Positions 37,701 to 64,000 are shown, counted from the first letter of the stretch. The stretch: 64,000 bases of DNA from Bugula neritina (GCA_964035545.1 OZ037769.1:10136633-10200632); one strand, 5' to 3'. Program-made: numbers and translations. Notes: a model not told the origin generated them from the letters alone.

Positions 37701-38273
37701 AAGACCTTGTCATTTTTAAGTAGTGATCATGTGATTCATTGTTATGGGTTCGGTGACGTGGAAACCAAAGACCACTCTGTGTTTTCTCTACAGGATAAGA
37801 CAACTCATTGTACTGATTATAAAGAAATTATAGACGCCTACACTCAAACAGCAAAGCATATTCAGCTAAGCGGTCCTACTAACTTCGCCCCTATGATAAA
37901 CAAGGGGATAGAATATTGTGAGATAACGGGTAAATATCACGTACTCATTATGATAGTGGACGGTCAGGTATCTTCTAAATCTGAGAAACAGACTGTTGAG
38001 GCCATAGTCAGGGCCAGTGACTACCCACTCAGTATTATTGTCATCGGTATAGGTGACGGACCTTTTGGCACTATGTTTGAGTACGATGATGGACTGCCCA
38101 AGAGAAAGTTTGACAATCTGCAGTTTGTTAACTTTCATCGTACAGTTACTAAAAGTAAACACGAAGCTGCTTTTGCTCTACACGCATTAATGGAGTTGCC
38201 TGATCAATACAAGGCAATCCAGCAATTGGGGTATTTACAAAATCACACTGTAGCTGATAAGAAGAGAGTGTAG
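34733..38273 (+). CDS. Copine/RGLG-type vWA-domain protein, ~357 aa, with N-terminal hydrophobic segment; exons 34733-34865 and 37333-38273
   Basis: MIIGIDFTASNEWQG, NPYQ, YGFGD, LSGPTNFAPMI, DGQV, ASDYPLSIIVIGIGDGPF, RKFDNLQFV and ALMELPDQY. Phase-1 donor AAAG|gtaagt fits acceptor tttcag|AC. Exon 1 is less certain than exon 2. Confidence 0.85.
36686..36761. repeat. Short minisatellite x~4.5 (gtgctaacatagaata)
   Basis: Direct reading. Confidence 0.8.
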
Positions 38274-42863: not shown

Positions 42864-44983
42864 TGTGATGGATTTTAATAGTTGTCGTCACTATGTTCTG
42901 AAAGTTCTAGTTTATATAATAATTACTATAATTGACTTGGCGTAACTTTTTGAATGCTGTTAAGTGTTGTAATTATAGCTAAGCTCTTAGCGTAGTGAAT
43001 AGCGTAATGATTGTGAATTACCCTTCCTAGTTTTGTTTGTTATAAAATACTGTAATAACTTTTGTTAAGCTATCTTCCCGCCTATTTTTTCATTTTTTTT
43101 GTAAATAGATCTTTAAGTCAGTCTACCACTCGACCAATGCACATCTAGAAGACAATAAAGAAACTTTTTATTTCCAGATCAAGAAGACTTTTATTATCAC
43201 AATAGTAATAAGGCATGCAGATTGCTTCATCTATTTCATAAATACTCTACAAGTTACTACATGGGGGGCAGCGGTGGGATATAAAATAAACATGCAAGAC
43301 AGGCAGCCATTACTAAAGAAGAAGAAGAAAGAAGAAGGACAAAGAAAGAAAAATAGAGATGGGGAGAGAAGGAAGAGAAAAAGAACCTCTCACCATGGAG
43401 ACACTCATTACTGCCCTCCGAGAAGTCAGTGGGGCTGGGCAGGCGCCACCTGGTGACAGGCATCAACTTAGGCCTCCGATTTTCGGAGATGAGGGGGATG
43501 TAGAACAATTCATTAGGGAGTTCGAAGAGGTAGCCAACGTCGCTGGATGGCCGGCCCAGACATGCCTCCTTCAACTCCAGACCTGTTTTACAGATCAGGC
43601 AAAGAGTTACAGCCTCGGTTTTAATGTTGGCCATATCTTTCAGGCCCTCAGGTCCGGTTTCGAGATCACCGCCCGTGCTGCCAAAGATCGCCTAAGAAGT
43701 ATACAACAAAACAGGAAGACGTCGCTCCAGGACCGCGCCAATGCTATAGAAGCACTGGCACAAGTGGCCTACAGCGATGTCGATCCGGAAGAACGACGAA
43801 GCTTGGTATACGAAGTATTCTCCCATACCATCAACAATGCCATGTTACGTTATTACTTGGCGACAAAAATCACCACCATTGGGGAAGCCCTGGCCATTGG
43901 AGAGGCGTACTACGAAGTAGAGGGATTCCAGGGAGCGCACTTCACGGCCAGCCAGGTAGAGGAGCAACCTGAAGCAACAAAGCCGGTCCACTGAGCCCTC
44001 AGACTGCTGCACCTTCACCCAGCCAACTCACCGTATTGATGGACATGATGAAGGGCTTACAAGCAGAGATAAAGAAGATGCAGCAAGAACAAGCTAATAG
44101 GCGAGCACCCAGGTCTTGGGGCGAACTTATCGGCTCTTCACATCTCACCTGTTAGAGGAGGGATGTGGCACCATGGGACATGTGCGTAGGCAGTGTTCTC
44201 AAGAAGGAAGGATGTCTTTAAACACCCGAGGCTCACGGCAACTTCCGCCAACCGTGGGCCCCAAGCCAACCTCGTCGGAGTTGCCCGAGGAGGGTGTGGA
44301 AGAGAATGCAGCTTACTCGCAAGAGTTTCCCAAGCTACTTTCACAACCTCAGAAAACCCCCGGTGTCTGTAAGACGAAGAGGGGGCCCGCTGTAAGAACT
44401 CAAGAAGTGTCTCCCTCAAAGACTGACCGCTCCAGGAACACCCAGCCGTACAGAAGCAGCTACTTTCTGCCTGGAAAAATTTCGGGTAAAGCTGCCACCT
44501 CCCTGCTAGACACCGGGTGCAATACAAACCTGCTGAGTCGGCGTCTCTTTGACACTCTTGGTGCCCGAGAGTGGGCAAGCCTCGAGCGGCATGAGGGTGC
44601 ACATGGCACATTGGCGGACGGATCATGTATTCCTTCTTACGGCATCATTACACTACCTGGACGCGTCTGCGATCAGGAAAATCCCCCTCGTACCAGTCGA
44701 GGAGCAGTCCTGGAGCACTTGGCTGATCTGTATGGTGAAGCGTGTGACAACTGTACGAGTAGTACTGAATGCCAAGTACTGGCTCAACTACTTATGGAGT
44801 ACGGTGATGGTTTCAGTCGCGAAGACAGGGACATGGGGCTGACCAAGGTTATCTCTCATGAGATACTCCTGGCAGCCGGCACCACCCCTATCAAACAGCC
44901 AACCCGACATCTAGGCTCGGAGAAGGAGGTAAGCCGGCAGGTGCAGGATCTTCTCAACCGGGACCTGATTGAGCCTGCTCACA
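42864..44983 (+). mobile_element. E0: 5' fragment of a related Gypsy element (LTR ~42864-43261, degenerate tRNA-Leu PBS, gag, internally deleted protease and RT start)
   Basis: PBS-like ggcagcggtgggat ending at 43280; gag 43359-43994 is similar to the E3 gag; protease LLDTG; similarity stops after DLIEPAH. The LTR start is inferred from TGTGATG. Confidence 0.85.
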
Positions 44984-46054
44984 AAATGTGGGAAACTGTG
45001 TAGCTTTAGCGAGTTTTAATTTTGGTAGCTCAAGAAGAGCGGTAGATTATTAGTTGTTTGTTTGCAACAAACTGCGTAGAGACAATAATTTAACAGTATT
45101 GATTCGAATAGTTTTATAAGCAGCTCCAAGTTAGGGGTGACTGCGTGCAGTAGTTTGCGGTTCTCGAGTTTAAGGTTTAGGGTTTATTGGAACTCCTATT
45201 TACAAAAAGCCCGAGAACCGCAAACACTGCGCTTAGTTCTTCCCAACTTGACGCAGTGTGGTATATTTAGGAGTGTTGACTTTAAACCATGAAAAATCAT
45301 AATGCCGCTATTGGTACCGCGAGTTTATATAAGTTATAAAAGAAAAATTTTGTCACTTTTGTGATTTTATTTTTTTTTAATTTTATGTGTCTATTTTTTT
45401 TAATTTTGTTTATTAGTAAAGTTTTTAAACATATTTTCAATGCATATAAAATTAAAAAAAAAATTAAAACTCAATCACGTGTTATAATTTTCAGATTTAG
45501 GGTCGATGTGCCACCAAGAGAGTCTATTTATCACTAGAGAAACTTCACCGAGTTAAGTCGAGTAGATATCGTTATATTTTAATACAAGAATACATAATAA
45601 AATCTAATGTACAACAGTAATGATACGCACGTCTATTTAATTTACAGCACTATCCTCAACTGAGCTAGTAGCGCGAAGCTGCTACTATTACTCATAAAAC
45701 AGCCTAGCTAATTGGCTAATGCATTGTTCCGGGTCAATACGCAACCTTGCGTATTGTGTTGCTGGTAGCTCCACGAGCCACCACACTGCCCCCTCCAGCA
45801 GAAAGCCCTCTTTCTGATAAAAATAAAATTCACATAAAAAAACGTATACTTCGTTGCGGGGGGAAGAGAACAGTATAAAAGTATATACAAAAAAACAAAC
45901 AACCGATAAAATATACAGGTATATATAAAACGTGCAGAATAAGTAATAAGTAAGAGAAGGTCCTATCTACATGTAGAGTACGTGCCACCATAACGGTAGG
46001 GAATGCCACAGAGAGGTAGGGGAAGAGTAGTATGGAGTTGGAGATAGACTCAAG

Positions 46055-47184
46055 TTAACTGCGGGCCGCACGCTTCATGCGTTTAATAGACTCCTGTAAA
46101 TATTTGAGTTCACTGGATGCAGCCTGCACCCGCGGGGCCAGTCTGTACACTTCTTGCTCCAAGTCGTGTGCCCTAGCTTCTACTTCACGTAGGTTGCGGG
46201 CCCAGGGGGACGAGCGAGAGGAAGTCGGCTGTCTGTGTCTTTTCCGCTCTGAGGATGGAAGGGGAGGAGGAAGTGTATACGCATTCGTGTCTACCCTCTG
46301 TAGTACGACACGAGGAAAGGTATGCGGTATGCGTAGAGGACTGTGAGGTGGAGAGTTAGTAGACTGTATAGGTTTATCTGTGGCTCCAGAGATGATGGGT
46401 CACGGGGAAGGGAAGCCTTGCTCCAGGCGAGATAGCCGAGCTGGGTCAGTGATGAGTGGTTTGATGGCGTTGAGAAATGCAGGATAGGATGATTCGTCTA
46501 CTTCATAGACATGTCCTTGATAACACTGCATAGTACGTTGGTGACGCAGTAGGTAATCACGATTGTAGCTATATTCTCCGCAAGGGCAGAAAGTGGTGAT
46601 GTAATGTTGCGGCAAGTGTACTTTCAGTCTGCGGTGGGTTGTAAATCGCTGCTGGCAGAGGTTGCATTCGCAATTACTTTCACCTCCTTGATGAGTCCTA
46701 ATCTCTCTCTCTGTGGCAGGGGTAATCCAGTTGGAGGTTGCTTCCAACTGGGGTGGCAGTTGCCTGGTTGTAGAAGTTGTTGGGGCCGGCTCTGGGTCCC
46801 ACGCCATCTCTAGAGAAGGCATGCCCGGAGAGACGGGCGCGAGTGTGTCTACAAAAGTAGAATTATTGTTAGATTGCGGTGGATCTTTACAACATAATTC
46901 TAGTGACTGTCGACTGTTGCTAGCCTGAGAGTCACAGCTTTTGGAATGCACTCGAGGAACCGATGAATCATGTGTGGACTGACCAAGAACAGTGTCTAGC
47001 TCCAGGTCTAACAGACCATCGGCCATTACAGTGTCTTCATCGTCATTCACATGAAACGTGGTTCCCAGTAATTCTGATTCAATCTGCTGAATTAGTTCAG
47101 AATTTACTGGCATCGAGCCCGTTTCCATGAATAGGAATACAAGACTTATACTGGCTTACCTGGGAACTCGGTATTAATGTCCAT
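46055..47184 (-). pseudogene. E2 accessory ORF3, predicted spliced (47160-47184 + 46055-46848), with a single in-frame TGA at 46400
   Basis: CNLC-x12-H-x3-H and CPC-x12-H-x5-C. Reading through the TGA gives the homologous coiled coil ARNLREVEARAHDLEQEVYRLAP..SIKRMKRAARS*. Confidence 0.75.
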
Positions 47185-50100
47185 ACTCAACGTTCTTGGT
47201 AAGATTGGAGCTGGTTGTGAGATACGTCTGCCTTTGGCGATGTCAGCATAAGAAAAGGCTGAGCATCGTTTCTGAGGCACGAGGTCGGAACTATTTGCTT
47301 TACGCGCATTAATTCCTCCCACTATTCCGCACTCGCAAAAGTTGATATTTGCGTGGGGTTCACAACTCCAACATTTCATCGTACGGTTTTCCCCTAGACT
47401 TTCATGTGCGCCGCTTCTAATGCAGTCACATACGAAGTCTTTTAAATATGGTGGGGGTTTCCTCGTACGCTGTCCCCTTTCTAGGGGGGGTGACACGCTT
47501 GCCGGTTCGTTAGTAGGGGCCTCTAATGGCGTCTCTACTTCACCGTTAGCGGTCACCTCTTCTTGTTCTCCGGATGGAGCCCCTCCCTCCGTGGGGGTTT
47601 GCACTTCCGGAACCGGCTCGGTTTCTGGAAGTGATGGAATTAGACTTGGCGGTGGCGGACACGCTTCTGTTGGCAAAAGCTGCCGCTCCTCTCTCACCAA
47701 GTTTTCTTCCCGCGGTATGACCACTTCGTATTCAGGTCCATGCCGCCGTCGCCCGCGCGTTGTTGTCTGCCTCCTGGGCTCTAACAACGGGGGGGCTTCT
47801 CCCACTCCGTCGGGGCTAGCCCAATACGGTTTCAAGCGAGACTCATTCTGGATAGACACCTGTCCTGAGCGCTCAATCTTGTACGTATGATTGGGCATAG
47901 CCTCGACGATCACGTAGGGTCCTACGAACTTAGGCTTCAGTTTATCAGCCTGTCCGCGACGCCTACGGTAATTGACCATCCACACCTTATCTCCCGTTTG
48001 ATAGAGAGGTGGTTCATCGGAATCTTCGTGCCGCACCTTCCACTGCTGTTGGCGCAGTATATCGTGTGCGGCCTTCATCCGTTCCACTAGTTCACTGGCA
48101 TACTCGTGAACCGAGTTGTCTTGCTCTGGAACGTGATAGGTGAGATGGTCAGGGACACGAGTCTCCCTCCCGAGCATCAAGAGGTTTGGGGTCTCACCAG
48201 TACTGGTGTGTGGGGTGCTACGGTATGCACGCATGACTTGCGGCAACACCGTATCCCATTCCTCTTGACCTCATCCAAGGAGGAGACTCCGGAGCGCATC
48301 ACCTAGCATCCGGTTGTTGCGCTCCACCACCCCGTTACCTTGAGGGTGGTAGGGGGTGGTCCTGCTCTGATTTACTCCCCAGAGGTGACAAAGGTCGCTC
48401 ATCAGTTGAGACTGGAATTGAGCGCCTTGATCAGAGTGTATCTGTTCGGGGAGCCCAAAATAACAGAATACATGTTGGTCTAGTGCCCTGGCCACTGTTG
48501 GGGCTGATGCATCTGGGATAGCCAGAGCATCCGCCCACCTAGTAAAGTGGTCGGTTAGTACTAGGATCCAATTATTGCCTCTGGGGGTCAGGGGCATGGG
48601 TCCGACCAGGTCTACAGCGACTACTTGCCAGGGCCTACCAGCATATAGCCTCCGCCGTCCTGCTTCACCAGGGGGGCGGCTATGCTTACTGGCCTGGCAG
48701 ATCTCACACTGTTTGACTCTGAGTCGGACATCACGCTCCATTTGTGGCCAATACCACCGGAGTCGTAATTTGGATATCACTCTCTTGACCCCTGCGTGGG
48801 CCTGTTTGTGAGTATCCCAAATCAACTCACGGCGGATGGCCGTGGGGCAGACTACCCTCTTCCTTTCCGGGTGTCTGCCGCTGGCAGCTAGGGAGATGGT
48901 GAGTAACCCATCCTGCCCGATCCGCAGCGAGTCCCAACGCTGACAGTATAGCCGGAACTCGGCGCATCCCTGTCGTATGCGTTCTTCGCTGGGTCGTCGC
49001 CCTTCCCTTTTGGCCCGGTATATGTCTGCCACGACTCCAGGCAGCTCTTCTTGGAGCTTCTTCAGCTCTCGAACATTACCGGCCAGTACAGGGTTGGCGC
49101 GGAGGTTTTGTACATCCTCCGGGGACTCATCAACTCCTTGCCTGAGTTGACCCTGGTCCCAGTCAAACGGTGCTCCGTGCTGAGCCAGCGTCTCCAACTC
49201 GCATCGCGGGGGACCTCCATCCCTCCTCTCGATGTTGAGACACTGTTTGCAACCTCCGTCAGGTCGGCGACTCAACCCATCCGCATTGCTGTGTCTCTTG
49301 CCCGGTCGATGTTCGATCCGGTATGAGAATTCAGCTAGGATTTCGAGCCACCGGGCGACCTGACTAGAGGGCTCTGCTCTCTTGCACAACCAGATCAGCG
49401 AGGCATGATCCGTACGCAGCCGGAACTTCCTGCCGTATAAGTATGGTCTGAAGTGCTTCACTGACTTGATTACTGCCGGCAGCTCCTTGTGGGTAGTGCA
49501 GTAATTTCGTTCAGCGGGTGAGAGAGACTTGCTGTAGTAGGCTACTACTACCTCTCGGCCCTCCTGCACTTGTGACAGCACAGCGCCAACATTTTGGTCA
49601 CTGGCGTCCGTGTCGAGGATGTACTCCAGAGTGGGGTCTGGGTAGGCCAAGATGGGCGCCGTTAGTAGGCAGCCCTTGAGGCGGTCGAACGCTCCTTGTT
49701 CGACTGGGGTCCACTGCCACGTCACTCCCTTTGCGGTGAGCCGGTTTAACGGCTGTGCTATGCCCGCAAAGTCCGGTATGTATTGCCTGTAATACCCTAC
49801 CAGCCCCAAGAAAGCCCGGAGTCCGGTCAAGTCTTGGGGGGTGACCCAGTCTTCTACCGCCCGTACCTTTTCGGGATCCGTTGCCACGCCGTTTCGACCG
49901 ACAACGTGCCCCAGGTACTTGACCTCCGGCTGCAATAAAGCGCACTTGGAAGGTTTGAGCTTAAGACCGGCACCTCGGAGTCTCTCGAAAACCTCCTGCA
50001 GACGACTGACATGTGTCTCGAAGTCTGGAGAGATTACGATGACATCATCGAGGTAGACCAGCAGTGTCTTCCAATGGAGCCCGCTAAGGACTTGTTCCAT

Positions 50101-51243
50101 CAGCCTCTGGAAGGTGGCTGGGGCGGAGGTTAACCCGAAGGGCAGCACCTTCCACTTCCACAAACCGTCCCGTGTGATAAACGCCGCTTTCTCTTGGGCG
50201 TCGGGACTCAGAGGAACTTGCCAATAGCCGCTTAGCAAGTCTAACGTACCGAAGTACTTGCTGCCGGCTAGGGCGTCCAATGACTCGTCAATACGAGGTA
50301 GAGGGTAGGCGTCCTGTATGGTTACGCTATTGAGTTTGCGGTAATCCACACAGAACCGCCAACTGCTGTCTTTCTTCCGGACCAGTACGACTGGCGAGCT
50401 CCACGCACTATGGGCGGGCTCTATCAGTCCCCGGTCCAGAAGATCCCGTACTTGTCGGCTAACCTCCTTCTCTTTCTCCGGCCCCAGCCTGCGTGTGGGC
50501 TGCCGGACAGGGACTGTCCCTGCAGTCAGCGGTATTTCGTGTCTGACAGTTCCAGTCAGTCCCACGTCATGCTCTCCGCTGCTGAACACATCACCGTAGT
50601 CGCGTAGTAACTTAGCCATAACTTGGCGTTCTCTGTTACTCGCGCAGCCGCCACTGGCTGTTTCGTATAACTCCCGGAGATGTGTTGGGACTGCCCCTCG
50701 TCCCTGAATAGGGTGTCGAGGGGGTGCCTCCGTCGCGTCATCCAGCGACGGGCCCACGTCCTCTTCCTGGACGGAGTGGAACCGGCCCAGCATTGACCCA
50801 GCTGGGAGCTCAATGGGCTCGGTAAAGGGGTTGACACACTGCACTAAGACCTCCCCCCGCTCAGTTAGTCGGTTTAAACTACTGGCGAGTTGGATCCTTT
50901 CGTGCGCGCCTTCAACGACCCCGAGCCTGGCTATCTGGTTGCTGTTCACTCGGCAGTGGATAGTAGCTCTGGAGCGTCCGGGCACGGTGCAGTTTCGAAC
51001 TACCTGAACACCGCCCACCAGAAGACGCCCAAACTTATCCACACAGGCGAGTTCTCGCCCGCCCATCAGCACCACCGACTTACTAAAGTCTATTCGGCAC
51101 TGGTGTTGCTTCAAGAAGGGCATTCCGAGGATAGCATCTTCCTCCAGTTGGCCTATGACAAAGGTCTCCTGTACAGCGTGGTCTCGGACACGCCCAGGGA
51201 GCTCGATAATACCATAAAAGGGAATACATGACATCTTCGACAT
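47146..51243 (-). pseudogene. pol: E2 pol (partial PR, RT, RNase H, integrase) with one nonsense codon at 48271
   Basis: ORFs 48271-51243 and 47146-48249 are in the same frame, separated by a TGA where E3 has CGA. Confidence 0.93.
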
Positions 51244-51814
51244 CTTCCGACCCAGTAAAGGTGGGAGCTTTCAAGCAATGTCTATAAGCTTCTTCTCCCT
51301 CACGATTCACAGGATTAACAGCATTTCTACGCTCACCTTCTACTGGGGGTGGTTGCATTCTAGCATTTTCAGTCTCCATCTTTGATGTACACTATCCCAC
51401 TGCTGCCACCACTGTTGTAATTTTCAGATTTAGGGTCGATGTGCCACCAAGAGAGTCTATTTATCACTAGAGAAACTTCACCGAGTTAAGTCGAGTAGAT
51501 ATCGTTATATTTTAATACAAGAATACATAATAAAATCTAATGTACAACAGTAATGATACGCACGTCTATTTAATTTACAGCACTATCCTCAACTGAGCTA
51601 GTAGCGCGAAGCTGCTACTATTACTCATAAAACAGCCTAGCTAATTGGCTAATGCATTGTTCCGGGTCAATACGCAACCTTGCGTATTGTGTTGCTGGTA
51701 GCTCCACGAGCCACCACACATGCACGTAAATACAAAGCTATAAAGTTTAAGCTTTGCTGTGATTACAACGTGAATATGAATTGAATAATACTTGCAATAA
51801 CCATTTTACACAAA

Positions 51815-52392
51815 ATACGTTACAGTTGCTATAAATGTAAGACTAGTAAATTGGATGCAAATAGGCACGGTAATACTACTTAATATATATGCTATTTTTG
51901 AAATTTGTAGTAAATATTTGGCATGTATTATATATATATATATATATATAATAATAATATATTATATATTGTTATATTATATATTATAATATATTATATA
52001 TTATTATATTATATTATATATATATAATAATATCATATATAATATATTATTATATTATATATTATATTATATATATATAATAATATCATATATAATATAT
52101 TATTATATTATATTATATATAATATATATATATTATAATAATATATTATACATTAATATATTATATATTATATATATAATAATATCATATATAATATATA
52201 TATATATTATAATATTATATTATATATTATATTATATATGTATATTATATATATATAATAATATCATACATAATATATATAATATACTATTATATTATAT
52301 ATTATATATATATTATATATATATAATATTATCATATATAATATATTATTATATTATATAATAAATTATATTTATTATATATATAATAATAT

Positions 52393-52438
<46 letters not shown>

Positions 52439-52517
52439 GCCAAATATTTACTACAAATTTCAAGAATAGCATAGCATCCAATTTACTAGTCTTACATTTA
52501 TAGCAACTGTAACGTAT
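51815..52517. repeat. Fold-back structure: inverted arms (51815-51927 / ~52433-52517) around ~500 bp of nearly pure TA low-complexity DNA
   Basis: atacgttacagttgctataaatgtaagactagtaaattggatgc..tgaaatttgtagtaaatatttggcatgtat is the reverse complement of the right arm. Confidence 0.85.
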
Positions 52518-53578
52518 TGTAGTAGTTTTGTGGGTGATAGAATGAAATCAGGCAGAGAACATAACTCCTTGTTATAGAAGAGACAAGAGAGAGAGGTTGC
52601 CGTGTGCTTGCAGTACTTTATTGTAGCAGTGAGAAGTGTCCAGTGTGAGCTCCAGTCCGCAAGTGACTGAAGCTCTAAAATGCGTGTCCTTTTATACTGG
52701 TAGAACAAAGGACCTCTAGAACCTTCCACCGACAGCGGGCCGATGTTCGGCAGGGGATACCGACATGACGAATGTCGGTAACTGACACTGGAAATATCGG
52801 TAACCGACATTCGGTCTGCCTGCATCCACCTGCTAAAATCGGTCCAACTGTCGGTTTACATGAATCAACAAAAATGAACCCAACCAAGTGTATGCGTATT
52901 GTAACTTGTAATTGGGGGAAAGGGGATTAACTATTTACTATGTTAAAAGCTCAACATTAGCCATAGTGTTTAAGGTATTAGAAAGTTACGCTACATAATT
53001 AACTATGATTACAGTATTTAGAAAAATAACCATAAGTAATGTGTCAAGGGGGATAACTCTTAATATTTACCACACACACCCCCTATCAGAAAGTACAGTT
53101 TCTGATACAAAAACAGAGGGTAAATATAACAACGTAAATCAACTGGCCAAGGGGCATGAGGAGTAGCATGAGAATACAGGGCTAGGCCACTGGGAATACA
53201 GAAAAATAATAATAAAAAAAACTTGGTTGAGGTTCAGGTTCTAGAGAAAAATGGTATAATACTGATAAATGCTAATAATAATAGTAAAATATAAAAAAAC
53301 TTTGATACTGCAATGCACACTATTGTTCACACACATATTTGTAGTAATACTTATAACACACTAATAAAAGTAATATAAAGTCTCATCTATCACTCCTTAG
53401 CAAAGCCTGAATGTCTCCTTCGAAGAGGTCTCTTGAGTCTCCAGATATCTCCTTCGTGTGGGCAGGGACAGGTAGGCTGGTTGCGAGTGGGGGGGGGGTA
53501 GAGCGCAGTAAGTGGATGATGAGTGAGAGGTGGTGGTGGATAGGTCGAGGTCTCTTCTTAGCCTTGGGCAGGTTCTGG

Positions 53579-56500
53579 CTACTGTCGTCTATCGTGGCCA
53601 GCACGACCCGTAAGTACGTTTGGTAGCGTCAGTGTTCTCCGTCCTGGTCCGTCGAGGTCTATCCAGACAGCCCAACTGCCCAGAGTCACTTGCGCTTCTT
53701 CCGCAGGGAGTTGAGCTTCTTCAGGTAAAGGAAGCTCCTCTAAAGCAGTGGGGGCAGACTGGGCCAGAGAGGGGGAACCCGTCGGGCCGACTGGAGCCGA
53801 GCCAGGGTTCCGGATAAAGGGGAAGTCGGGTTGAATCGCTTCGTCTACTCCAGTATCCATGTGGTTGTATGACGACTCTGGCTGCGGGAGAACCATGTCA
53901 TCGTCTGTTTCATCCTGATTGTTGTCAGAACCTAGTGAGGGGTCAGTATCTGCCGATTTTGGGTACGTGAACTCAATTTCAGTATCACGCCCCGGGTATC
54001 TAGGCCCACAGAGATGGAAGTCTATGCCTGTGCTAGGCGAATTAGGTTCTATTGGGGTTAGATTCACGGGTCCCACGTGATAATCGGCTAGATACCCTGG
54101 GGGTCTCCTACTTCTTGACTGTCTCTCCAACTCCACAGGTGCCTCAGGCTGGGGTGGAAGTGTGATAGGGGCAGGGGTCCCTGGGTCACTTCCTTCAGCG
54201 TGAGGTGCACCTCCTGGCACCGGGGCCGGCGCTGGGGCCGGTGCAACTGGTGGACCAGGTGGAGGAGGAGGTTCTGGTGTCCGGTCCGCTTCTACTGGGT
54301 CTTGGACTGCAATCTCCCACTCTCTGGGCCGAGCCACCCGTCCTCTGGAGATGGGCTGGCGAGCCGGCTCGAGTAGGGGAGGTGCCTGCCCCGCAGCGTC
54401 TGGGCTGCCCTCATAGGGTTTCAACCGCTGCTCGTTTTAGACTGAGACCTGCCCTGAGCGTTCCACACGGTATGTGTGGTTCGGTAGAACCTTTATGATG
54501 CAGTAGGGCCCCAAGAACTTGGGCTGAAGTTTAGCCGACTGTCTGTGTCGCCTACGGTGACTCACCATCCATACCCAGTTTCCTACTTGGTATAGTGGGG
54601 GCTCTTCGGAGTCTTCCGTCCTTGTCTGCCACTGCTGCTCGCGCAGGGCTTCATGAGCCTGCTCCATCGTCTCGATAAGCTTCCCCACGTACTCATGTAC
54701 GGGGGCCTCAGGCGCAGGAACATGATATGTTAGGTGCTCCGGGATGCGAGTCTCCCGACCGAGCATCAGGAAGTTTGGGGTTTCCAGGGTACTGGAGTGT
54801 GGTGTGCTGCGGTAGGCCCGCATTATCTGGGGCAGCACCACGTCCCATTCTTCCTGTCCTCGGCCTAAGAGCAGGCTTCGGAGGGCATCTCCTAACATCC
54901 TATTGTTCCTCTCGACGACTCCGTTCCCTTGCGGGTGATATGGGGTCGTCCGGCTTTGGTTCACCCCCCATATCCGGCAGAGGTCTCCCATTAGCTGGGA
55001 CTGGAACTGGGCCCCCTGGTCAGTGTGAATCTGTTTGGGAAGCCCGAAATAGCAGAACACTTGCTGATCCAGGGTCCGGGCCACGGTGGGGGCTGATGCA
55101 TCTGGTATAGCCAGGGCATCAGCCCACCGAGTGAAGTGGTTCGTGAGCACCAGTATCCAGGTGTTCCCTCTGGCAGATAACGGCATAGGTCCGACTAGAT
55201 CCACGGCCACTACCTGCCATGGCCGACCAGCGTATAGCCGGCGTCGACCCGTGGTCTCGGTAAGGCGGCCATGTTTGCTAGCCTGGCAGACCTCACATTG
55301 CCGTATCCGCAGTCGCACGTCCCGAGTCAGTCCGAGCCAGTACCAGCGCAGTCTCAGACATCTGATGACCCGACTGGCCCCTGAATGGGCCTGTTTGTGG
55401 GTGTCCCAGATTATTTCCCGCTGGAGGGCACGTGGACATACGACGCGTTCCCTCTCACGGCGGTTATCTGCTGCGAGTGTAATGGTGAGGAGGCCGTCCT
55501 GGCTGACCTTGAGGGAATCCCAGCGGCTACAGAGGTGTCGGTACTCGACGTCCCCTTGTCGCTGCTGTTTCTCGGTAGGTCGGCGGCCCTCCTTTTTGGC
55601 CCGGAAGATTTCAGCCACCGCTCCTGGTAGTGTCTGCTGGAGCCGACTCAGCTCCTGGACGTTTTGATACAGCATGGGGTTGGCCCGTAGGGCATTGACG
55701 GTATCCGGTGGGCGTTCGGACCGAAGCTGGCCGCCTTCCCAACTGTGGACGTCGTCGCTCCCCAGCTCTCTCTCTACGTCCAGGCGAGCGGGTCCTCCAT
55801 CTCGCTCCTCGATGTGCAGACACTGCTTGCAGGCCTCCTCCGGCCGTCTGCTCATCCCATCAGCATTCCCGTGCTTCCCCCCAGCACGATGCTCGATCCT
55901 GTATGAGAATTCCGCAAGAATCTCCAGCCATCGGGCCACCTGGCTCGAGGGCTCTGCACGCTTACACAGCCATATTAGAGATGCATGGTCTGTTCGCAAC
56001 CTGAACGCTTTCCCATACAAATATGGCCGGAAGTGCTTCACCGCCTTAACTACTGCCAGGAGCTTCTTTCTGATGGTGCAGTAGTTCTTCACGGCGGGGG
56101 AGAGGGTCTTGCTGTAGTAGGCGACGACCACCTCAGCTCCACCCTGAACCTGTGACAGAACAGCTCCCACGTTGTGGTCGCTGGCGTCGGTGTCCAGGAT
56201 GTATTCCTTGGCTGGGTCAGGGTACGCCAGAATAGGCGCCTCTGTTAGCCGACTTTTGAGGTGGTCAAATGCCTGTTGCTCCTCCTGTGTCCACTGCCAC
56301 CGGACCCCTTTAGCTGTTAGCCGATTCAATGGCTGTGCAACTCCTGCAAACCCGGGGATATACTGCCGATAGTACCCCACCAGGCCCAGGAATGCGCGTA
56401 GCTCTGTGAGGTCTCGGGGGACAGTCCACTCCTCCACAGCCCGTACCTTCTCCGGGTCGGTAGCGACGCCGTGACGGCCAACCACATGGCCTAGGTACTT

Positions 56501-58441
56501 CACCTCCGGCTGTAGGAGTGTACACTTGGAGGGCTTTAGCTTCAATCCGGCGGTCCGAAGACGGTCAAAGACCTCCCGCAGACGACTGACATGAGTCGCA
56601 AAGTCTGGGGAGATTACTATGACGCCGTCCAGATAGATGAGCAAAGTCTTCCAGTGTAATCCACTGAGGACCTGCTCCATGAGTCGCTGGAAGGTTGCCG
56701 GGGCGGACGTTAGTCCAAATGGCAGAACCTTCCACTTCCAGAGCCCATCGCGGGTGATGAACGCTGCCTTGTCCTGTGCATCGGGACTGAGGGGCACTTG
56801 CCAGTACCCACTCAGCAGGTCCAAAGTACTGAAGTACTTGCTTCCCGCGAGGGCGTCTAGAGACTCGTCTATCCTGGGAAGAGGGTAAGCATCCTGGATG
56901 GTGACACTGTTGAGTCTGCGGTAGTCCACGCAGAACCTCCAGGTACCATCCTTCTTCTTGACCAAGACCACGGGAGAGCTCCACGCACCGTGGGCAGGCT
57001 CAATCAGGTCCCGGTCAAGAAGGTCTTGCACTTGTCTGCTTACTTCCTTCTCCTTCTCCGGACCTAGCCGTCGTGTAAGCTGCCTGATGGGGGTGGTCCC
57101 GGCTGCCAAGGGTATCTCAAGACACACCACCTTGGTCAGCCCCATGTCTTCATCTCCGCGACTGAAGACGTCACTGTAGTCCACCAGTAGTCGAGCCAGT
57201 GCTTGGCGATCGGCACTACTGCTACAGTTCCCACAGGCTCCATCATATAGGCCAGCCACATGCTCCGGTATCGCCGTCCGTCCGGCCCGAGGGGGAGCAC
57301 CCGGGGCGTCGGTCACTGTCTCCAGTGCTGGCCCCACATCCGATTCCTGGATGGAGTGGTACTTCCCCACCAGGGCGCCTGCCGATAGCTTGATCGGCTC
57401 GGTGAAAGGGTTGATGCACTGTACGAGGAGTTCTCCCTGGCAGTCTAGCCGATTTAGGCTGTTTGCCAACTGGATCCCTCCTGGCATTCCTTCTACCAGT
57501 CCCAGTCCAGCTATCCTCTTGCAGTTGACCTTGCAGCGGAGGGTAGCCTGGGACCGTCTGGGTACAGTGCAGTTGTGCACTATTTGGACCCCACTTACCA
57601 AGGGTCTACCGAACTTGTCGACGCAGACAAGTTCCTTGCCAGCCATCACCAACGCAGAATTCTGGAAGTCTATGCGACACTGGTGTTTCTCCAGAAACGG
57701 CATGCCCAGAATTGCGTCCTCCTTCAGATGGCTGACAATAAAGGTCTCGTGGATCGCCTGATCCCGGACCTGTCCATGTAGTGTAAGGACGCCGTAGAAG
57801 GGAATGCATGATCCGTCCGCCAACGTACCATGCGCCCCCTCATACGGCTCGAGACTGGCCCTCACGTGGGCCCCAACGGTGTCAAACAGGCGCCGACTCA
57901 GCAGGTTGGTAGTACAACCGGTGTCCAACAGGAAGGTGGCAGCTTTTCCCGCAATCTTCCCGGGTAGGAAGTAGCTGCTTCCATATGGCTGGACACTTTT
58001 AGGCTGGTCGGCCTCTGTGGGTGACACCTCCTGGGTTACCACGTGGGGTCGCCTCCTTGTCTTCGCGACAGCGGGGGTTTTTAGAGGTCTAGAAGGTAGC
58101 TTGGGAAACTCTTGCGAGTAAGCTGGATCTTCTTCTATGACCTCGTGGGTTAACCCCGCGAACCGGTTGTGGAGTGGCCAGGCAGGAGGTTCGGGAAAAC
58201 CTTGCGGTCTCCGAGGTCTCCGGGGTGCCTGCCACCCCGTGTCAGCTGGCTCCCTCCGAGTACTGCTTGGCATGGCTGGAGGTCTAGGTGGGCCTCTAGG
58301 CCCCCTTCTCTGAGGACTAGGCCGTCTGAGGTTGGCCGCTTTGTCCATCGTTCCTCCAGATGCGTCCAGTGTACTCCTGGGTGGGAGGTTTGACCTGGGC
58401 TCACGGTTGGCGGAATCTACCGTGAGCCTCCGGCGTTTAAA
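53579..58441 (-). pseudogene. pol: E3 pol with RT active site mutated to YLDG, a nonsense TAA at 54437 and a long Pro/acidic tail
   Basis: The 1342-aa ORF plus the in-frame ORF 53579-54424; LLDTG protease; HHCC and DDE integrase. Confidence 0.93.
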
Positions 58442-59308
58442 GGTAGTTTTCCCTTTTGGGGACAACGCCGCTGGACGTGACCCAAGGCGCTACACCCCCA
58501 GCATGTGGGTTGGTTCAGCCTGGTTGGGTTAGTCCGAGTATCGGTCGTCCTCCTGCCTCCCTGTTGCTGTTGCAGACTCGCTACTTCCAGTTGCAGGCCT
58601 TTCACCATGTCTACCAACATGGTGATCTGCGAGGAAGAGGGTGCAGGGTCAGCAACAGTGGCAACTGTGGCTTCTTCTTCTTTGGCCGCCTCTTCCCTCT
58701 TCCACTTGACTTGCTGTGAAGTCGGCTCTGTGGGGGTTGTCTACCTGATAGTAGGACCGGCCCATCGCTAGAGCTTCCTCGATCGTGGAAATCTTGGCGG
58801 CCAGGTAATGCTTCTGTAGAGCGCTGTCATTGATAGTACTGAAGAAGGCCTCGTAGACTAGCTCCCGCCGCTCATCTAGAGCGATTCGGCTGTATGCTAT
58901 CAATGCCAGTCTTTCAATGGCGTTAGCATGGTCTTGAAGCGAGGTCCTTCTGTCCCTCTTCATGTTCTGAAGTTTGGTTCGGGCTTCTCTAGCAGTCAGA
59001 CCGAACCGTGTCCGGAGTGCCTGATAGATCTGCCCAACATTCTCCCCGACAGCGTAGTTCTTAGCTGATCCAGTCAGGCATGACCGCAGCTGTAGAAGAC
59101 GTACCGGTGCCGGCCATGCGGCGAGGGTAGCAACATCTTCAAATTCTTTGATGAACTGCTCTACGTCGCAGTCCCCTCCAAAAATCGGCGGCTGAAGGCG
59201 ATACCTGTCGAGAGGTAGTGCCGGGTTAGCCGGGCCGATTGCCCGGAGGGCGGTTACTAGGCTCTCCAGGGTGAGAGCCTCTCCTCCATTTTCTGGTGCC
59301 CTTGACAT
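58417..59308 (-). pseudogene. gag: E3 gag with a 1-nt frameshift near 58696; knuckle CWGCSALGHVQRRC
   Basis: ORFs 58649-59308 and 58417-58620. Confidence 0.88.
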
Positions 59309-60365
59309 CTGGCTAGCTCCTTGTCTCTTCCAAGGGCTGCCTGACTATTCTGATCCCACCGCTGCCACCGATGTAGTAGTTTTGTGGGTGATAGAATGAA
59401 ATCAGGCAGAGAACATAACTCCTTGTTATAGAAGAGACAAGAGAGAGAGGTTGCCGTGTGCTTGCAGTACTTTATTGTAGCAGTGAGAAGTGTCCAGTGT
59501 GAGCTCCAGTCCGCAAGTGACTGAAGCTCTAAAATGCGTGTCCTTTTATACTGGTAGAACAAAGGACCTCTAGAACCTTCCACCGACAGCGGGCCGATGT
59601 TCGGCAGGGGATACCGACATGACGAATGTCGGTAACCGACACTGGAAATATCGGTAACCGACATTCGGTCTGCCTGCATCCACCTGCCGAAATCGGTCCA
59701 ACTGTCGGTTTACATGAATCAACAAAAATGAACCCAACCAAGTGTATGCGTATTGTTGTGAGTTTTAGCACAATTATCAAGCGTGGATTGTCTGCGTATT
59801 TAGTTTCAATTTAACTAGCAACTACTAACAGAGCTTGCGTACGATAACCTTTATTTAATTCGATAAACATAATTATAACAGTATGTCAAAACCACAATAC
59901 ATCAATCAATTATAAACACGTCTAGCTACTACGAGCCCCTGCTCTCAACAACATGGTTTCTGCTAACTAACCCGCGAACAGTCACTTGACCGGAACCTTG
60001 CCTTCCGGTCCTTCTGATTGGTTGGTAGAACATAGTTATAAGTATTCCAATGCAGGAGGAGACAAATGCATTATTATGCTACGTAATCCCATTACACCGC
60101 CCCCACCAGCAGAAAGCCATACTTTCTGATAAAAACAGAAATAGTATAATAATGCAAAAATAACATAAGTCAAGAAAATCCACAAAGAGAAAGAAGAGAA
60201 ATACCAAATGTATGATAATATAAGTAAGATAACGGATGGCCAGCGTACCACTGGCCAGCTATAAAGAGAGAGTCCTGGATCGTAGGTCTTTAGCAGTCAA
60301 GCATTTGCATGATCACAACGTAGTATCCCGGGAACATGCGGGGTGGAATTGCCAACTGTCAGCTC

Positions 60366-61393
60366 CTATTTTTGTAGGGACTGGATCCGGTGACGTGCTT
60401 GCCGTGCACGTAGTCTACGCTTAAGGCGTCCCACTGAGCCCTTTAGTTCATTAAGGCTCACTGAAGTGCTGAGTAAGTCGGGAGCCAACTGGGTGAATTC
60501 ATCTTGCAGCCGTAAGAGTCTTTCTTCAATGGTTGCTAGCCGGGTAGGTCTGGGTGGAGTTGGCGTCGCCTCCTCTGGGGAGTCTGATGCTTCCATAGGG
60601 GTATTATCTAGCCGCGGTATGATTGCGGCGACCGTTTTCACCATAGGGGACTTCTGACGGGCGGCTGTTAGCAATGTATAAAATCCGGAGGATAATGCGG
60701 CCCAGGTTAAAGCCTTCTTAACTACTGGTTTGACCGCTTCTAGGTATTTATCGTAGTTGTCCGCGTCTACTACATAGCCTTCGCCCGCGAAACAGTCCAT
60801 CATATGAGCCACGACGGGGTATGGGTACACGTCGTGAAATCCACACGGACAGAACCGTAGCAGGAAGTGTGCATTCACATGCAGCCGTAGTCCTTGGTGT
60901 GAGGGAAGCTCTTCGTAACACATGTGGCAGGTGTTTTGTGACCTACTCGGTCCCCAGGCTTCTTCAATCTGCCGCTCCGTTCGTCGCGACACCCATCTGT
61001 GTCTTCGACGCAGCACCGCGGGCAGTCCGTTGTCCATTTCCGGTCCGTTATCCAAGGAGGAGAGAGAGTGTAGATCCTGTGACCCAGAGTTGGTCGATCG
61101 AGTGTGATCTGCAAGAGTATAACAGTGTAGAGTGTACACTGAGTACAACCGGCGTATACAGCCTGGTGGGTACTTAACTCAATTAGACACTCGTGAGACT
61201 CAGTTAATGAATAGTTGATCGAAAACACACACTGCTGTAACAGACTGTTAAGTCTTAGAGTCAATGTGAATTCTCACCACTAAAAATCATTACCGAGTCT
61301 CCAGCTTACTCTATTATAGTTAAGCTGATTAATACAGTTTAGCCCTCGTACCAAAAACATAACTAACTCACCCCTCGATTCTTGGCAAGCCAT
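60366..61393 (-). CDS. E4 accessory ORF3, predicted spliced (61372-61393 + 60366-61108), 254 aa zinc-finger/coiled-coil protein
   Basis: CHMC-x12-H-x3-H and CPC-x12-H-x3-C; RLATIEERLLRLQDEFTQLAPDLL; donor G|gtgagt; acceptor ctcttgcag|. Confidence 0.75.
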
Positions 61394-62140
61394 TGTGAAT
61401 GAGAGTGGTATGTTTATGAATTCTACGTACGTCTACTCAAAGCTGTATTAATGTGATGAAAGAGCGAGCAGCGTGGTTGTGAAACGTGACTATGACTTAT
61501 TACCTCCGGCGTATGAATCTTATTTGAATCTCCGCCGAGGCAAAAGTTGATATTTTCGTGGTGCTCACAACTCCCACGCTCTGCTCTCTTCTCCTCGCGG
61601 CTTCTCGTAGGACGTTTGACCGCGCCCTGAACGGAACGTGGTAAGTCCTTGCGATACGCGGGGCCTGGCTTAGGACACCGTTTCCAAGGTGTCGTCACTA
61701 ACCAAGGCGGTTTACGCACCCGTGGACGGTCACGTCTCTTGGGTGGTGCTTCCAGCCAGTTTGTGACAAATGGAGCTTTCCTAGCATCTCCGTTCGGAGC
61801 CTGGGGAAGTGTTATCTCTAGCCATGGTGGTTTACGCACCCGTGGACGGTCACGTCTCTTGGGTGGTGCTTCCAGCCAATTTGTAACAGATGGAGCTTTC
61901 CCAGTACTTCCGCACGGAGCCCCTCCCTTGGGGGGTTTTTGCACTTCCAGGTCGGTTCCTGACCTAGGAAGTGGCGGTGGCGGCTTGCACGCTAACGGCG
62001 GTGAGCGCACTTCCCTGGACGGGGGTGGCTTTTCCTGCCTCGCCACTGTTTTGGGTTGCATCCTAGGCGGTTTGTCAACCAGGTTAGCAGTCTCCGTCTG
62101 CCCGGGTTTTTCTGCACTTTGCCTTCGCCGCCCTACCTCC

Positions 62141-63610
62141 TCAGTAGGGGGGGCCGTGCTTACTGACCCGGCAGACTCCGCACTGCCCAACGCTGTGTCG
62201 TACATCACGCTCCATGTGAGGCCAATACCACCAGAGTTGTAGTTCGGTAAACACCTGTTGGGCTCCCCCATGAGCCTGTTGGTGTACCTCTTCTATCAAC
62301 TCTTGGCGGATGGCGGCAAGACAGAGGGTCCTCTCCTGGTCTGGCTGGTGGTGGTTATCGGCCAAAGATATGGTCAGTAGACCATCCGGCCCGATCCGCA
62401 GTGCGTTCCACTGTCGGCAGTACAGCTGCCACTCAGGGCAGCCCTGCTCCCGTTGTCTGTCACTGGGTCGTCGCCCTTCCCGTTTCATTCGATAGACGTC
62501 GGCTACCACCCCCGGAATAATTTCCTGGAGGTGTCCTAGCTCCTTGACGCCATCGGTTGAGACAGGTTTGGCGGGGGGGGGGGGGGGGTCCCGTGCCACC
62601 TCTGGGGGCATGTCAGGATTCCCAAGGTGAGGTGTAATCTCGGTTTTGTGTATTGACGTGGCCGTTTCCGGGCGCTGTTCGTCATCCACGCAACCGGCTG
62701 ATGTTCTCCCACGGGTCTCCTGGCTGTGGGGTGAGGCAGTCCTTCGCCCGTAGGGCGGCTTCTCTAGAGGACTTTTCATCGAGGTTTCCCGCGATGGCCT
62801 GCTGTTATCTTCTTGAACAGAAGGAGTACAGCTTGGTGGAGAGGTGGGTGGTAGGCTCACTGGTTCAGAGGGGGAGTGGAGGCATGGCACCGGGGTCTTT
62901 CCTTTCCGTGTCAGCTGGTTAGAGCTGCGGACAGGTGGGACTTTCGGGTGCGCGCTCTCTACAGCTCCCGGCCTGGAGGTACGGCCACCGTCTACCTTGC
63001 GGTGGACGGTGTCCCGGGAGTGGCCAGGCATAGTGCAAGTACGTACTACCGGCTCTTCTCCCGTTAGGGGACGGCTATGGACCTGCCGCGAAGGGGAAGA
63101 CGGCGCCCCGTACGGCGTCTTCGTCTTCTCCCTCGCAGTGTCTGAGGTCGACAGCCCATCGAGTCCGTCTCGGAGTGGCTCCCGGCGGTGCGGCTTGGGT
63201 CTAGTTTCCCTTCGAGGCTTCTTCGCCGGCCCGCAGGGTGCGGGGGCCGTGGAGGGCTCCATGTCCATGGTGGAGATGCCAAAACGGGCCCGCAGGGAAG
63301 CGAAGATACTGGCCACGTCAGTTCCCTCGCCGCATGGCTTGGCCTTGTCCGCCAACGCTGTCCTAAGCTTGAGCAACGCCATTCTTGGTGGCCACCGTGC
63401 AAAATTCCGCAGATCTTGAAAAGTTTGAATGAATTGTTCTACTGATTCTTTACCTGTAAAGGTGGGTGTCTTCAGCCGATATATAGTCTCCTCGAATCTT
63501 ATAACAACTCTCACCATATCCCAGACTGCGGGGTCTACAGGCGTGACAATGTCATCTTCCTCCTCTTCACTTAGTGGCATGAGTAGTTCCGTAGCTCTTT
63601 CTTTTGCCAT
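62141..63610 (-). CDS. E4 chimeric ORF, 489 aa: Gag N-terminus + Pro-rich out-of-frame pol remnants + pre-integrase region and HHCC domain
   Basis: KTPTFTGKESVEQF..RARFG (gag); PGVVADVYR..HQQAHGG..CGVC (pol). Confidence 0.6.
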   Translation of the reverse strand: MAKERATELLMPLSEEEEDDIVTPVDPAVWDMVRVVIRFEETIYRLKTPTFTGKESVEQFIQTFQDLRNFARWPPRMALLKLRTALADKAKPCGEGTDVASIFASLRARFGISTMDMEPSTAPAPCGPAKKPRRETRPKPHRREPLRDGLDGLSTSDTAREKTKTPYGAPSSPSRQVHSRPLTGEEPVVRTCTMPGHSRDTVHRKVDGGRTSRPGAVESAHPKVPPVRSSNQLTRKGKTPVPCLHSPSEPVSLPPTSPPSCTPSVQEDNSRPSRETSMKSPLEKPPYGRRTASPHSQETRGRTSAGCVDDEQRPETATSIHKTEITPHLGNPDMPPEVARDPPPPPAKPVSTDGVKELGHLQEIIPGVVADVYRMKREGRRPSDRQREQGCPEWQLYCRQWNALRIGPDGLLTISLADNHHQPDQERTLCLAAIRQELIEEVHQQAHGGAQQVFTELQLWWYWPHMERDVRHSVGQCGVCRVSKHGPPY

Positions 63611-64000
63611 TCTGATATACGCATAATCCCACCGCTGCCACCACTGTTGTGAGTTTTAGCACAATTATCAAGCGTGGATTGTCTGCGTATTTAGTTTCAA
63701 TTTAACTAGCAACTACTAACAGAGCTTGCGTACGATAACCTTTATTTAATTCGATAAACATAATTATAACAGTATGTCAAAACCACAATACATCAATCAA
63801 TTATAAACACGTCTAGCTACTACGAGCCCCTGCTCTCAACAACATGGTTTCTGCTAACTAACCCGCGAACAGTCACTTGACCGGAACCTTGCCTCCCGGT
63901 CCTTCTGATTGGTTGGTAGAACATAGTTATAAGTATTCCAATGCAGGAGGAGACAAATGCATTATTATGCTACGTAATCCCATTACAGTATTGTAACTTG

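Follow-up and report, generated by a model that had tools for sequence, protein, structure and literature searches.

A non-autonomous Ty3/gypsy element of Bugula neritina that retains a predicted zinc-finger third reading frame

The Bugula neritina sequence considered here (GCA_964035545.1, OZ037769.1:10136633-10200632) is a stretch of 64,000 nt, hereafter the window, with coordinates counted from its first letter and four long terminal repeat (LTR) elements, E1 to E4, of which E4, a 4.2-kb Ty3/gypsy derivative on the minus strand, is the subject of this account. Its two minus-strand LTRs (5' copy, 63645..63987; 3' copy, 59754..60096) are each 343 nt long, end in TG...CA and differ at a single position (60004 T, 63895 C), a divergence of 0.29% (95% range 0.007–1.6%). 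A perfect target-site duplication (TSD), GTAT, flanks the element, with the left copy (59750..59753) inside the 5' LTR of E3 and the right copy (63988..63991) followed by bases that carry on that LTR, the last 13 nt of the window matching the continuation of E3's other LTR. Being nested in E3, E4 must be the younger of the two, an order with which the LTR pairs are consistent (1/343 differences in E4 versus 3/382 in E3, with overlapping ranges). Directly inside the 5' LTR lies an 18-nt primer-binding site (PBS; 63626..63643, minus strand), near-identical in E1–E3 and presumably of the tRNA-Leu type, and beside the 3' LTR an imperfect but G-rich polypurine tract (PPT; 60097..60107, minus strand); the LTRs with one difference, perfect TSD, PBS and PPT listed in a preliminary description of this DNA were all found, and E4 thereby has the structural features of Metaviridae, namely LTRs with TG...CA ends, PBS, PPT and a short TSD. 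Target sites across the window (ATAC, 24813-24816; GTAT, 52514-52517; GTAT, 59750-59753; CAYG for E2) follow a 4-nt alternating purine–pyrimidine preference.

A short hairpin with CAGAAA/TTTCTG arms stands ahead of the PPT (60110..60131, minus strand) and is found in all of E1–E4, even though E3 and E4 have LTRs that show no relation to the rest. Because the E4 LTR is unrelated to those of E1–E3, the window contains no helper for E4. Contigs from four sequencing runs were compared with the window (X1, X2 and X4, DNA-like; X8, RNA by guess), and a relative with an LTR ~88% and a third open reading frame (ORF3) ~87% like those of E4 is present, and expressed, in X8.

The interior of E4 holds three reading frames, ORF-A (489 codons), ORF-B (289 codons) and ORF3 (246 codons), which sets it apart from terminal-repeat retrotransposons in miniature (TRIM) and large retrotransposon derivatives (LARD), whose defining feature is an internal region without coding capacity. 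ORF-A (62141..63610, minus strand) fuses the start of Gag in frame to pol remnants, in the order Gag N-terminus, pol start, protease–reverse transcriptase (PR–RT) spacer, RNase H–integrase (IN) linker and IN zinc domain. The remnants map in the same order as the pol domains of E3, where PR (176-265), RT (510-669), RNase H (733-861) and IN (1019-1186) follow one another in the arrangement that identifies E1–E4 as Ty3/gypsy (Metaviridae). The Gag N-terminal part (63263..63610, minus strand), lacking the Gag C-terminus and zinc knuckle, is 68% identical in amino acids to that of E1 over 73 codons, with synonymous sites saturated; the PR–RT spacer (62660..63073, minus strand) is a degenerate remnant with an open frame; and the IN zinc-binding domain remnant (62156..62311, minus strand; H2C2, PF17921, E 1e-10) has no integrase core behind it. 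ORF-B (61423..62292, minus strand), the C-terminal tail of pol, holds a 113-nt internal duplication (61689-61801 / 61809-61921).

A search of the three minus frames for the catalytic motifs of PR, RT, RNase H and IN core and for the Gag zinc knuckle recovered 0/6 in E4, compared with 6/6 in E1, 4/6 in E2 and 5/6 in E3, so the earlier statement that E4 has no enzymatic domains holds for the catalytic motifs, but not for the IN zinc-binding domain, which persists. With its cis signals present and its catalytic domains gone, E4 is non-autonomous, and its recent mobility, also proposed earlier, is borne out by the near-identical LTRs, the TSD and the nesting in E3. The frame of ORF-A is broken near 62147-62153 in the window copy; four related database protein records (P0188, P0191, P0192 and P0211, such records being numbered P here) read across this point, and every X1, X2 and X4 contig covering it differs from the window there, indicating a break private to this copy or an error of assembly.

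Among the six proteins matched by ORF-A, five (P0188-P0192) carry E4-type deletion joints and one (P0193) is of full-pol type, while the eight matches to the Gag start comprise four that span the E4-type Gag joint, two that stop before it, one with another deletion and one of full-Gag type at 49%. The proteins with shared joints (P0188-P0192, P0203-P0206 and P0211) are 47–83% identical to E4 in amino acids, and where the joint is readable in close Gag relatives (73–85%), all four are of deleted types. In P0192 the first RT residues are joined to the RNase H–IN linker, and P0192, P0188 and P0190 retain sequence of the RT start that is absent from E4, which shows stepwise erosion. A differently deleted relative, P0208, has its Gag start joined to the zinc knuckle, with mid-Gag missing. 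Contigs of the three DNA-like runs carry E4-type sequence at 95–100% identity across joints and ORF3; those of X2 and X4 bridge the joints and span ORF3 and the deleted backbone at 95–99% identity, at similar depth in X2 (39–55). Three of the listed ORF3 contig pieces are clear of the 3' untranslated region and at least 97% alike, none of them gapped. Contig depth reaches ~1240 for near-identical X1 contigs, as opposed to 47–120 at the joints of divergent relatives, these raw depths being a hint only.

With joints common to several protein lineages and bridged in X2 and X4, E4-type elements have transposed after the loss of their enzymes; a single-copy recent deletion, which would have undone the earlier proposal, does not apply. 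E4 very probably belongs to a non-autonomous, multi-copy family, and on these alignments it is likely a recently inserted member of an old Ty3/gypsy lineage with internal deletions. The alternative that E4 arose by a single, recent deletion in an active element, its ORF3 intact for want of decay time, accords with the low LTR divergence and with simulations in which a neutral ORF3 at 85% identity remains stop-free in 14% of cases, but is rendered highly improbable by the shared joints, by the further stepwise loss in E4, and by pol remnants only 35–57% identical to those of E1–E3, which are mutually 57–82% identical in the same regions.

These remnants have drifted neutrally. Replacements per site, computed by hand from pairwise nonsynonymous divergence (dN), amount to ~0.5 in the spacer on the E4 branch versus 0.04 on the E2 branch, and to 0.24 versus 0.07 in the IN zinc region; of the spacer columns common to E2 and E3, E4 retains 27/65, and E1 retains 69/77 of its corresponding columns. 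Differences between E4 and its kin in the spacer and IN remnants are spread equally over conserved and variable columns (7/7 comparisons, p>0.4), the Gag N-terminus being better preserved (22/25 conserved columns). The spacer and IN remnants are stop-free, neutral simulations giving P(0 stops) of 0.045–0.063 and 0.078 (600 runs), and four joints are in frame, three visible in E4 and one judged from relatives. Drifting but stop-free remnants with in-frame joints point to selection for the open frame of the pol remnants rather than for the protein that it encodes.

ORF3, described earlier as uninterrupted, is indeed open for 246 codons in its exon 2 (60366..61108, minus strand). The predicted protein has a C2H2 finger (C60 C63 H76 H80, C-x2-C-x12-H-x3-H, residues 60–80), a C2HC finger (C86 C88 H101 C105, C-x-C-x12-H-x3-C, residues 86–105) and a basic C-terminal coiled coil (189–245) with an arginine-rich end, and all eight zinc ligands are invariant or nearly so among 44 aligned ORF3 sequences. 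A first structural model built from 38 close sequences was poor (predicted local distance difference test, pLDDT, 50); a second (pLDDT 85) features a strand–strand–helix arrangement at the finger, helices to residue 152 and a long helix at 189–245. No Pfam family reached the cut-off for E4's own ORF3 protein; with a profile of the 44 sequences, the top sequence matches in the PDB were C2H2 fingers (E 7e-6), and coiled coils were also matched. A transmembrane stretch was not found in ORF3 (maximum KD19 0.97), and the protein is therefore not Env; the identity of an env-bearing errantivirus was rejected on this value and on the zinc-finger and coiled-coil PDB matches. ORF3 is probably a nuclear regulator of element RNA.

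One search for ORF3 relatives returned 113 homologs and a second one 79 cluster representatives; those with names come from Bugula neritina and Watersipora subatra. Over aligned codons, the ORF3 of E4 is 60% identical to that of E1 and 31% to that of E2, with synonymous sites saturated (pS 0.75–0.77), which leaves the ratio of nonsynonymous to synonymous divergence undefined for these pairs. Among eight close kin, differences fall on 3–10% of 31 family-conserved ORF3 columns versus 15–42% of the others, with p<0.05 in five of the eight. Such column patterns place ORF3 under purifying selection across its family, and selection within the deleted lineage is slightly favoured. The earlier inference that ORF3 benefits its carrier is accordingly supported as to selection in the wider family and less firmly in the close kin of E4, with a benefit to the carrier itself only plausible.

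Upstream of exon 2 lies a mini-exon (61372..61393, minus strand) consisting of an ATG, seven codons and a phase-1 donor, a layout shared by E1, E2 and E4 (7–8 codons) and absent from E3, followed by a predicted small intron of 263 nt (61109..61371, minus strand; 266 nt in E1, 311 nt in E2) with canonical GT/AG ends in phase 1 in all three elements. The pol stop precedes the mini-exon ATG by 29 nt in E4 and 24 nt in E1, and the pol frame of E2 enters the mini-exon in frame; an internal promoter, or ribosomes that reinitiate once past the pol stop, could bring the mini-exon into use. The same stop lies 51 nt (E4, 61423) and 49 nt (E1, 26513) before the internal donor, distances that sit at the 50–55-nt limit of nonsense-mediated decay.

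A second first exon is suggested by P0004, in which ORF3 is preceded by 14 residues resembling the Gag starts of E4 relatives, with the junction at codon 1 of exon 2, so that in this relative ORF3 is made from spliced element mRNA. The first residues of P0004 match P0207 at 12/16 positions (E 1e-5); against the window alone the match is weak (271/10000 shuffles, tied with two other places), the Gag relatives carrying the link, and it is equally close to deleted-type and full-type Gags. A strong phase-1 donor, AAG|GTGAGC, follows Gag codon 14 in E1 (31920) and E2 (51336), and E3, without ORF3, has none. One X8 contig departs from the window sequence at 61110, where the acceptor lies, X8 depth being ~137 in the 5' part of exon 2 versus 2–13 in the intron. 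P0004, the E1 and E2 donors and the X8 contig together indicate that the normal route to ORF3 is a long splice driven from the LTR, and full-length elements are inferred to make ORF3 in this way from the LTR transcript. In E4, the place homologous to this Gag-leader donor (63563..63566, minus strand) has no GT, other phase-1 GTs occurring at 63570 (weak) and 63453 (phases counted by hand from the ATG at 63610), and the splice sites, previously described as intact, are so for the small intron but not for the leader donor. A route with three exons, using a conserved in-frame acceptor within the pol tail, was rejected as a general one (none in E1, two poor candidates in E4, many only in E2). No RNA dataset was listed as carrying E4.

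Between pol and ORF3, E1 and E4 have in common a block (61429..61577, minus strand; 114/149 nt) within the pol tail, a candidate cis element and module-swap boundary that contains a 20-mer encoding HENINFC (61541-61560), identical in E1 and with one change in E2, as stated previously; the 20-mer lies 148–167 nt upstream of the mini-exon ATG (61393), in agreement with the ~150–180 nt given before. No further match to it was found in the window, E3 included, with up to four mismatches allowed. Block identity peaks at 84% versus a background of ~60%, and since this exceeds what saturation elsewhere predicts, it suggests on sequence grounds either a cis element or the product of a recent exchange. 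The block is also pol coding sequence, but a purely coding explanation was rejected as the sole cause, the E1/E4 differences by codon position (14/11/10) showing no third-position bias. At the 20-mer (26640 / 47336) the homology of E1 and E2, 90% identical over 3.9 kb and with related LTRs, stops exactly; the ORF3 cassettes have been swapped there, and the ORF3s beyond it are only 33% alike.

A promoter, put forward as a candidate in the preliminary description, a response element of ORF3 and a crossover hot spot are all candidate roles for the block. In the first of these, after the manner of foamy viruses and Tor elements, the block would drive a short transcript from the mini-exon and ORF3 would transactivate the LTR, with E4 dependent on this route for loss of the leader donor, a reading partly compatible with the explanation proposed below. 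It draws on the ATG and phase-1 donor present in 3/3 ORF3 elements and absent from E3, on the conservation and codon-position pattern of the E1/E4 block while synonymous sites elsewhere are near saturation, on relatives that retain the block and donor region and differ between them (joints 61378-61410 to 61531-61534), and on the precedents of Tor3b/4b env (PMC4402516) and foamy virus tas (PMC12789967). It is nonetheless rather unlikely: the 23-nt E1/E4 identity run in the block was equalled in 811/20000 shuffles (p ~0.04); in P0211, an E4-type relative, 4/7 residues of HENINFC are changed, and likeness over the block is 64%, versus 61% over ORF-B; no TATA/Inr pair at proper spacing was found, nor any motif >9 nt common to a block and its own LTR; the mini-exon of E2 is the in-frame end of pol; the sole spliced ORF3 form seen, P0004, begins in the Gag leader; and the E1/E2 homology ends at the 20-mer itself. 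A conserved RNA fold of the block was not supported (z -2.9 in E4, -1.0 in E1, -1.6 in E2, with different structures).

The explanation tentatively favoured, at chances close to even, is that E4 is copied by the enzymes of a helper and retains ORF3 as a predicted nuclear zinc-finger regulator aiding transcription or export of element RNA. A related helper element would supply particles and enzymes in trans, and E4 an RNA with PBS, PPT and LTRs; lacking the leader donor, E4 would make ORF3 from the mini-exon or from another phase-1 donor (e.g. 63453). The fusion of Gag and pol junk would be kept open because its translation makes the RNA more stable or helps its packaging in cis, as reported for IAP 1-delta-1. 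ORF3 may work in the manner of Rev or CERV, exporting genomic RNA that contains introns, or as a transactivator in the manner of Tas, the pol-tail block being the element to which it may respond, and would in this way raise the output of intron-containing element RNA.

Its main rival holds that ORF3 is useful to full-length elements only, E4-type RNA regaining a 3' module (block, ORF3, PPT and LTR) by template switching with a co-packaged helper; ORF3 would then seem to be selected while being of no benefit to E4. Module swaps do occur at the 20-mer, as the exact end of E1/E2 homology attests; E4–E1 similarity begins just above the block, three X1 contigs leave E4 at 61574, the Gag-leader donor is missing from E4, and the expressed X8 relative resembles E4 in both ORF3 and LTR. 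Such hitchhiking is less probable, given that the readable close Gag relatives, all deleted, have diverged as far as their close ORF3 counterparts (77–90%), that ORF3 and backbone diverge jointly by 1–5% in X2 and X4 contigs, and that the start of P0004 is no nearer to full-type than to deleted-type Gags.

Several observations weigh against retention of ORF3 as a regulator serving E4. When conserved columns are set by E1 and E2 alone, only 1/8 ORF3 comparisons reaches p<0.05, and the pooled p of 1e-6 is inflated, the kin being related. Near-full-length homologs number 46/113, with frameshift-like tails in 10, and both fingers are kept in 38/58 homologs spanning them; the ORF3 of E2 is interrupted by a stop near 46400, and the related E3 does without one. 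With the ORF3 model, Foldseek returned nothing at E<=0.001 (weak Kaiso fingers), and VIA-align coiled coils only (Z<=6), the finger domain being barely tested. ORF3 kin and deleted backbones sit in separate protein records, the record-level linkage between the two reaching only ~5% divergence, and in a metagenome locus scan 1/212 pattern matches passed, an unrelated 29-residue coiled-coil match that was rejected as a linked ORF3 locus (a chance coiled coil in 67% GC DNA with no pol). P0191 and P0112, each from a contig of 2920 nt, were not counted as a link. Besides the missing leader donor of E4, 6/8 related Gag starts are without the glycine imposed by a donor of this kind, and E4-type spliced RNA was not seen among the 15 of 27 contig joints shown. 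ORF-A relatives that end early or leave the frame (P0189, P0190, P0203-P0207 and P0209) also tell against selection for an open frame, but may reflect decay after insertion, and the window copy of ORF-A is itself broken near 62147.

A further reading, in which ORF3 persists because it serves the host or acts against other elements, as a co-opted or restricting factor (dominant-negative or repressor), the LTR-rich cluster being maybe a piRNA source, relates to the surroundings of E4. The ORF3-type finger domain occurs in annotated Watersipora and Bugula genes (P0122, P0164, P0178 and P0197), two of which (P0122 and P0164) carry it twice, a possible case of domestication, and the minus strand holds all of E1–E4 in a span of 40 kb, none intact. 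As E4 is the youngest of a nested pair with a clean TSD, as the ORF3 family is diverse with many decayed copies, in the manner of mobile genes, and as a fifth fragment (43.3–45.0 kb) lies on the plus strand, a host role is very unlikely.

E1–E3 are themselves broken. E2 (45480-51718) represents a second deletion type, without most of gag and protease; its retained RT, RNase H and IN are interrupted by a stop near 48271, its ORF3 belongs to a distant type, and its target-site copies are one base apart (CACG/CATG). E3 (52518-59753) has no ORF3, block or Gag-leader donor, has the RT motif YLDG, and adjoins an arm of a palindromic AT-rich element (51814-52518, with 45-nt perfect inverted arms). 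The plus-strand fragment (43250-45003) is a truncated gypsy sequence related to E3, with a PBS-like site, Gag, a protease remnant and the start of RT. A Copine-domain reading frame (37302-38273; PF07002, E 2e-56) forms one long exon and is the sole clear host gene among the scanned ORFs, and long tandem arrays at 14952-16320 (24-nt and 27-nt units, 37 copies in register) have frames open on both strands.

Among known systems, the non-autonomous family TelKA2n of Adineta vaga resembles E4 in retaining ORF3; its ORF3 is env-like, with within-genome variation reported as mostly neutral, whereas that of E4 is of zinc-finger/coiled-coil type without a transmembrane stretch (PMC5408684). Mouse IAP 1-delta-1 is likewise non-autonomous, with an internal deletion that fuses gag and pol in one ORF, a fusion that, per a review, acts in cis to help retrotransposition; it has a single 1.9-kb deletion and a conserved protein, in contrast to the at least four deletions, neutrally drifting pol remnants and accessory gene of E4 (PMC6466679). 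CERV of C. elegans Cer1, a nuclear protein needed for export of unspliced RNA, shares with ORF3 its gypsy-class element, the long splice, the Gag N-terminus of a spliced accessory protein, and a Cys-rich finger with a coiled coil; it is, however, 517 aa long, has a C4-type loop and a G-like domain and is encoded largely inside gag, whereas ORF3 lies behind pol and has C2H2/C2HC fingers, the likeness being one of features (PMC10309623). Oikopleura Tor elements reach a third ORF by the same two routes proposed for ORF3, a donor near the gag start (Tor3a) or an internal promoter in or behind pol (Tor3b/4b), but the product is Env and the routes belong to separate elements, whereas E1 and E2 hold both donors in one element (PMC4402516). 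Foamy virus Tas, a DNA-binding activator, is also encoded by a 3' regulatory ORF reachable from the LTR and an internal start, in Retroviridae with env and proven promoter activity, the ORF3 promoter being candidate only and likened by layout (PMC12789967). The searched passages of PMC13524379 mention neither a zinc finger nor non-autonomous forms, and in the literature covered by title and abstract, outside Repbase-type entries, subscription papers and supplements, no C2H2 ORF3 was found in gypsy or bryozoan elements of this kind. The zinc-finger ORF3 family, its two first exons and their combination in an old satellite lineage likewise had no counterpart in that literature; the separate ideas of a satellite that keeps ORF3, an in-frame fusion, a leader splice and an internal promoter each have a precedent.

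A fuller picture, itself doubtful, is of a bryozoan gypsy lineage with an undescribed zinc-finger regulator and two alternative first exons, in which an enzyme-less satellite without the leader donor would keep its Gag–pol fusion open to the mini-exon, go on producing the regulator and so contribute the switch (for activation, export or anti-silencing), the machinery coming from the helper, in a division of labour between the two retroelements. Non-autonomous elements shed what can be borrowed, and what stays marks cis-acting or limiting functions; E4 has held on to the Gag start, an open frame and a zinc-finger gene. Should ORF3 prove Rev- or Tas-like, an invertebrate gypsy retrotransposon would have the layout of a complex retrovirus, with CERV as its nearest counterpart in the literature consulted.

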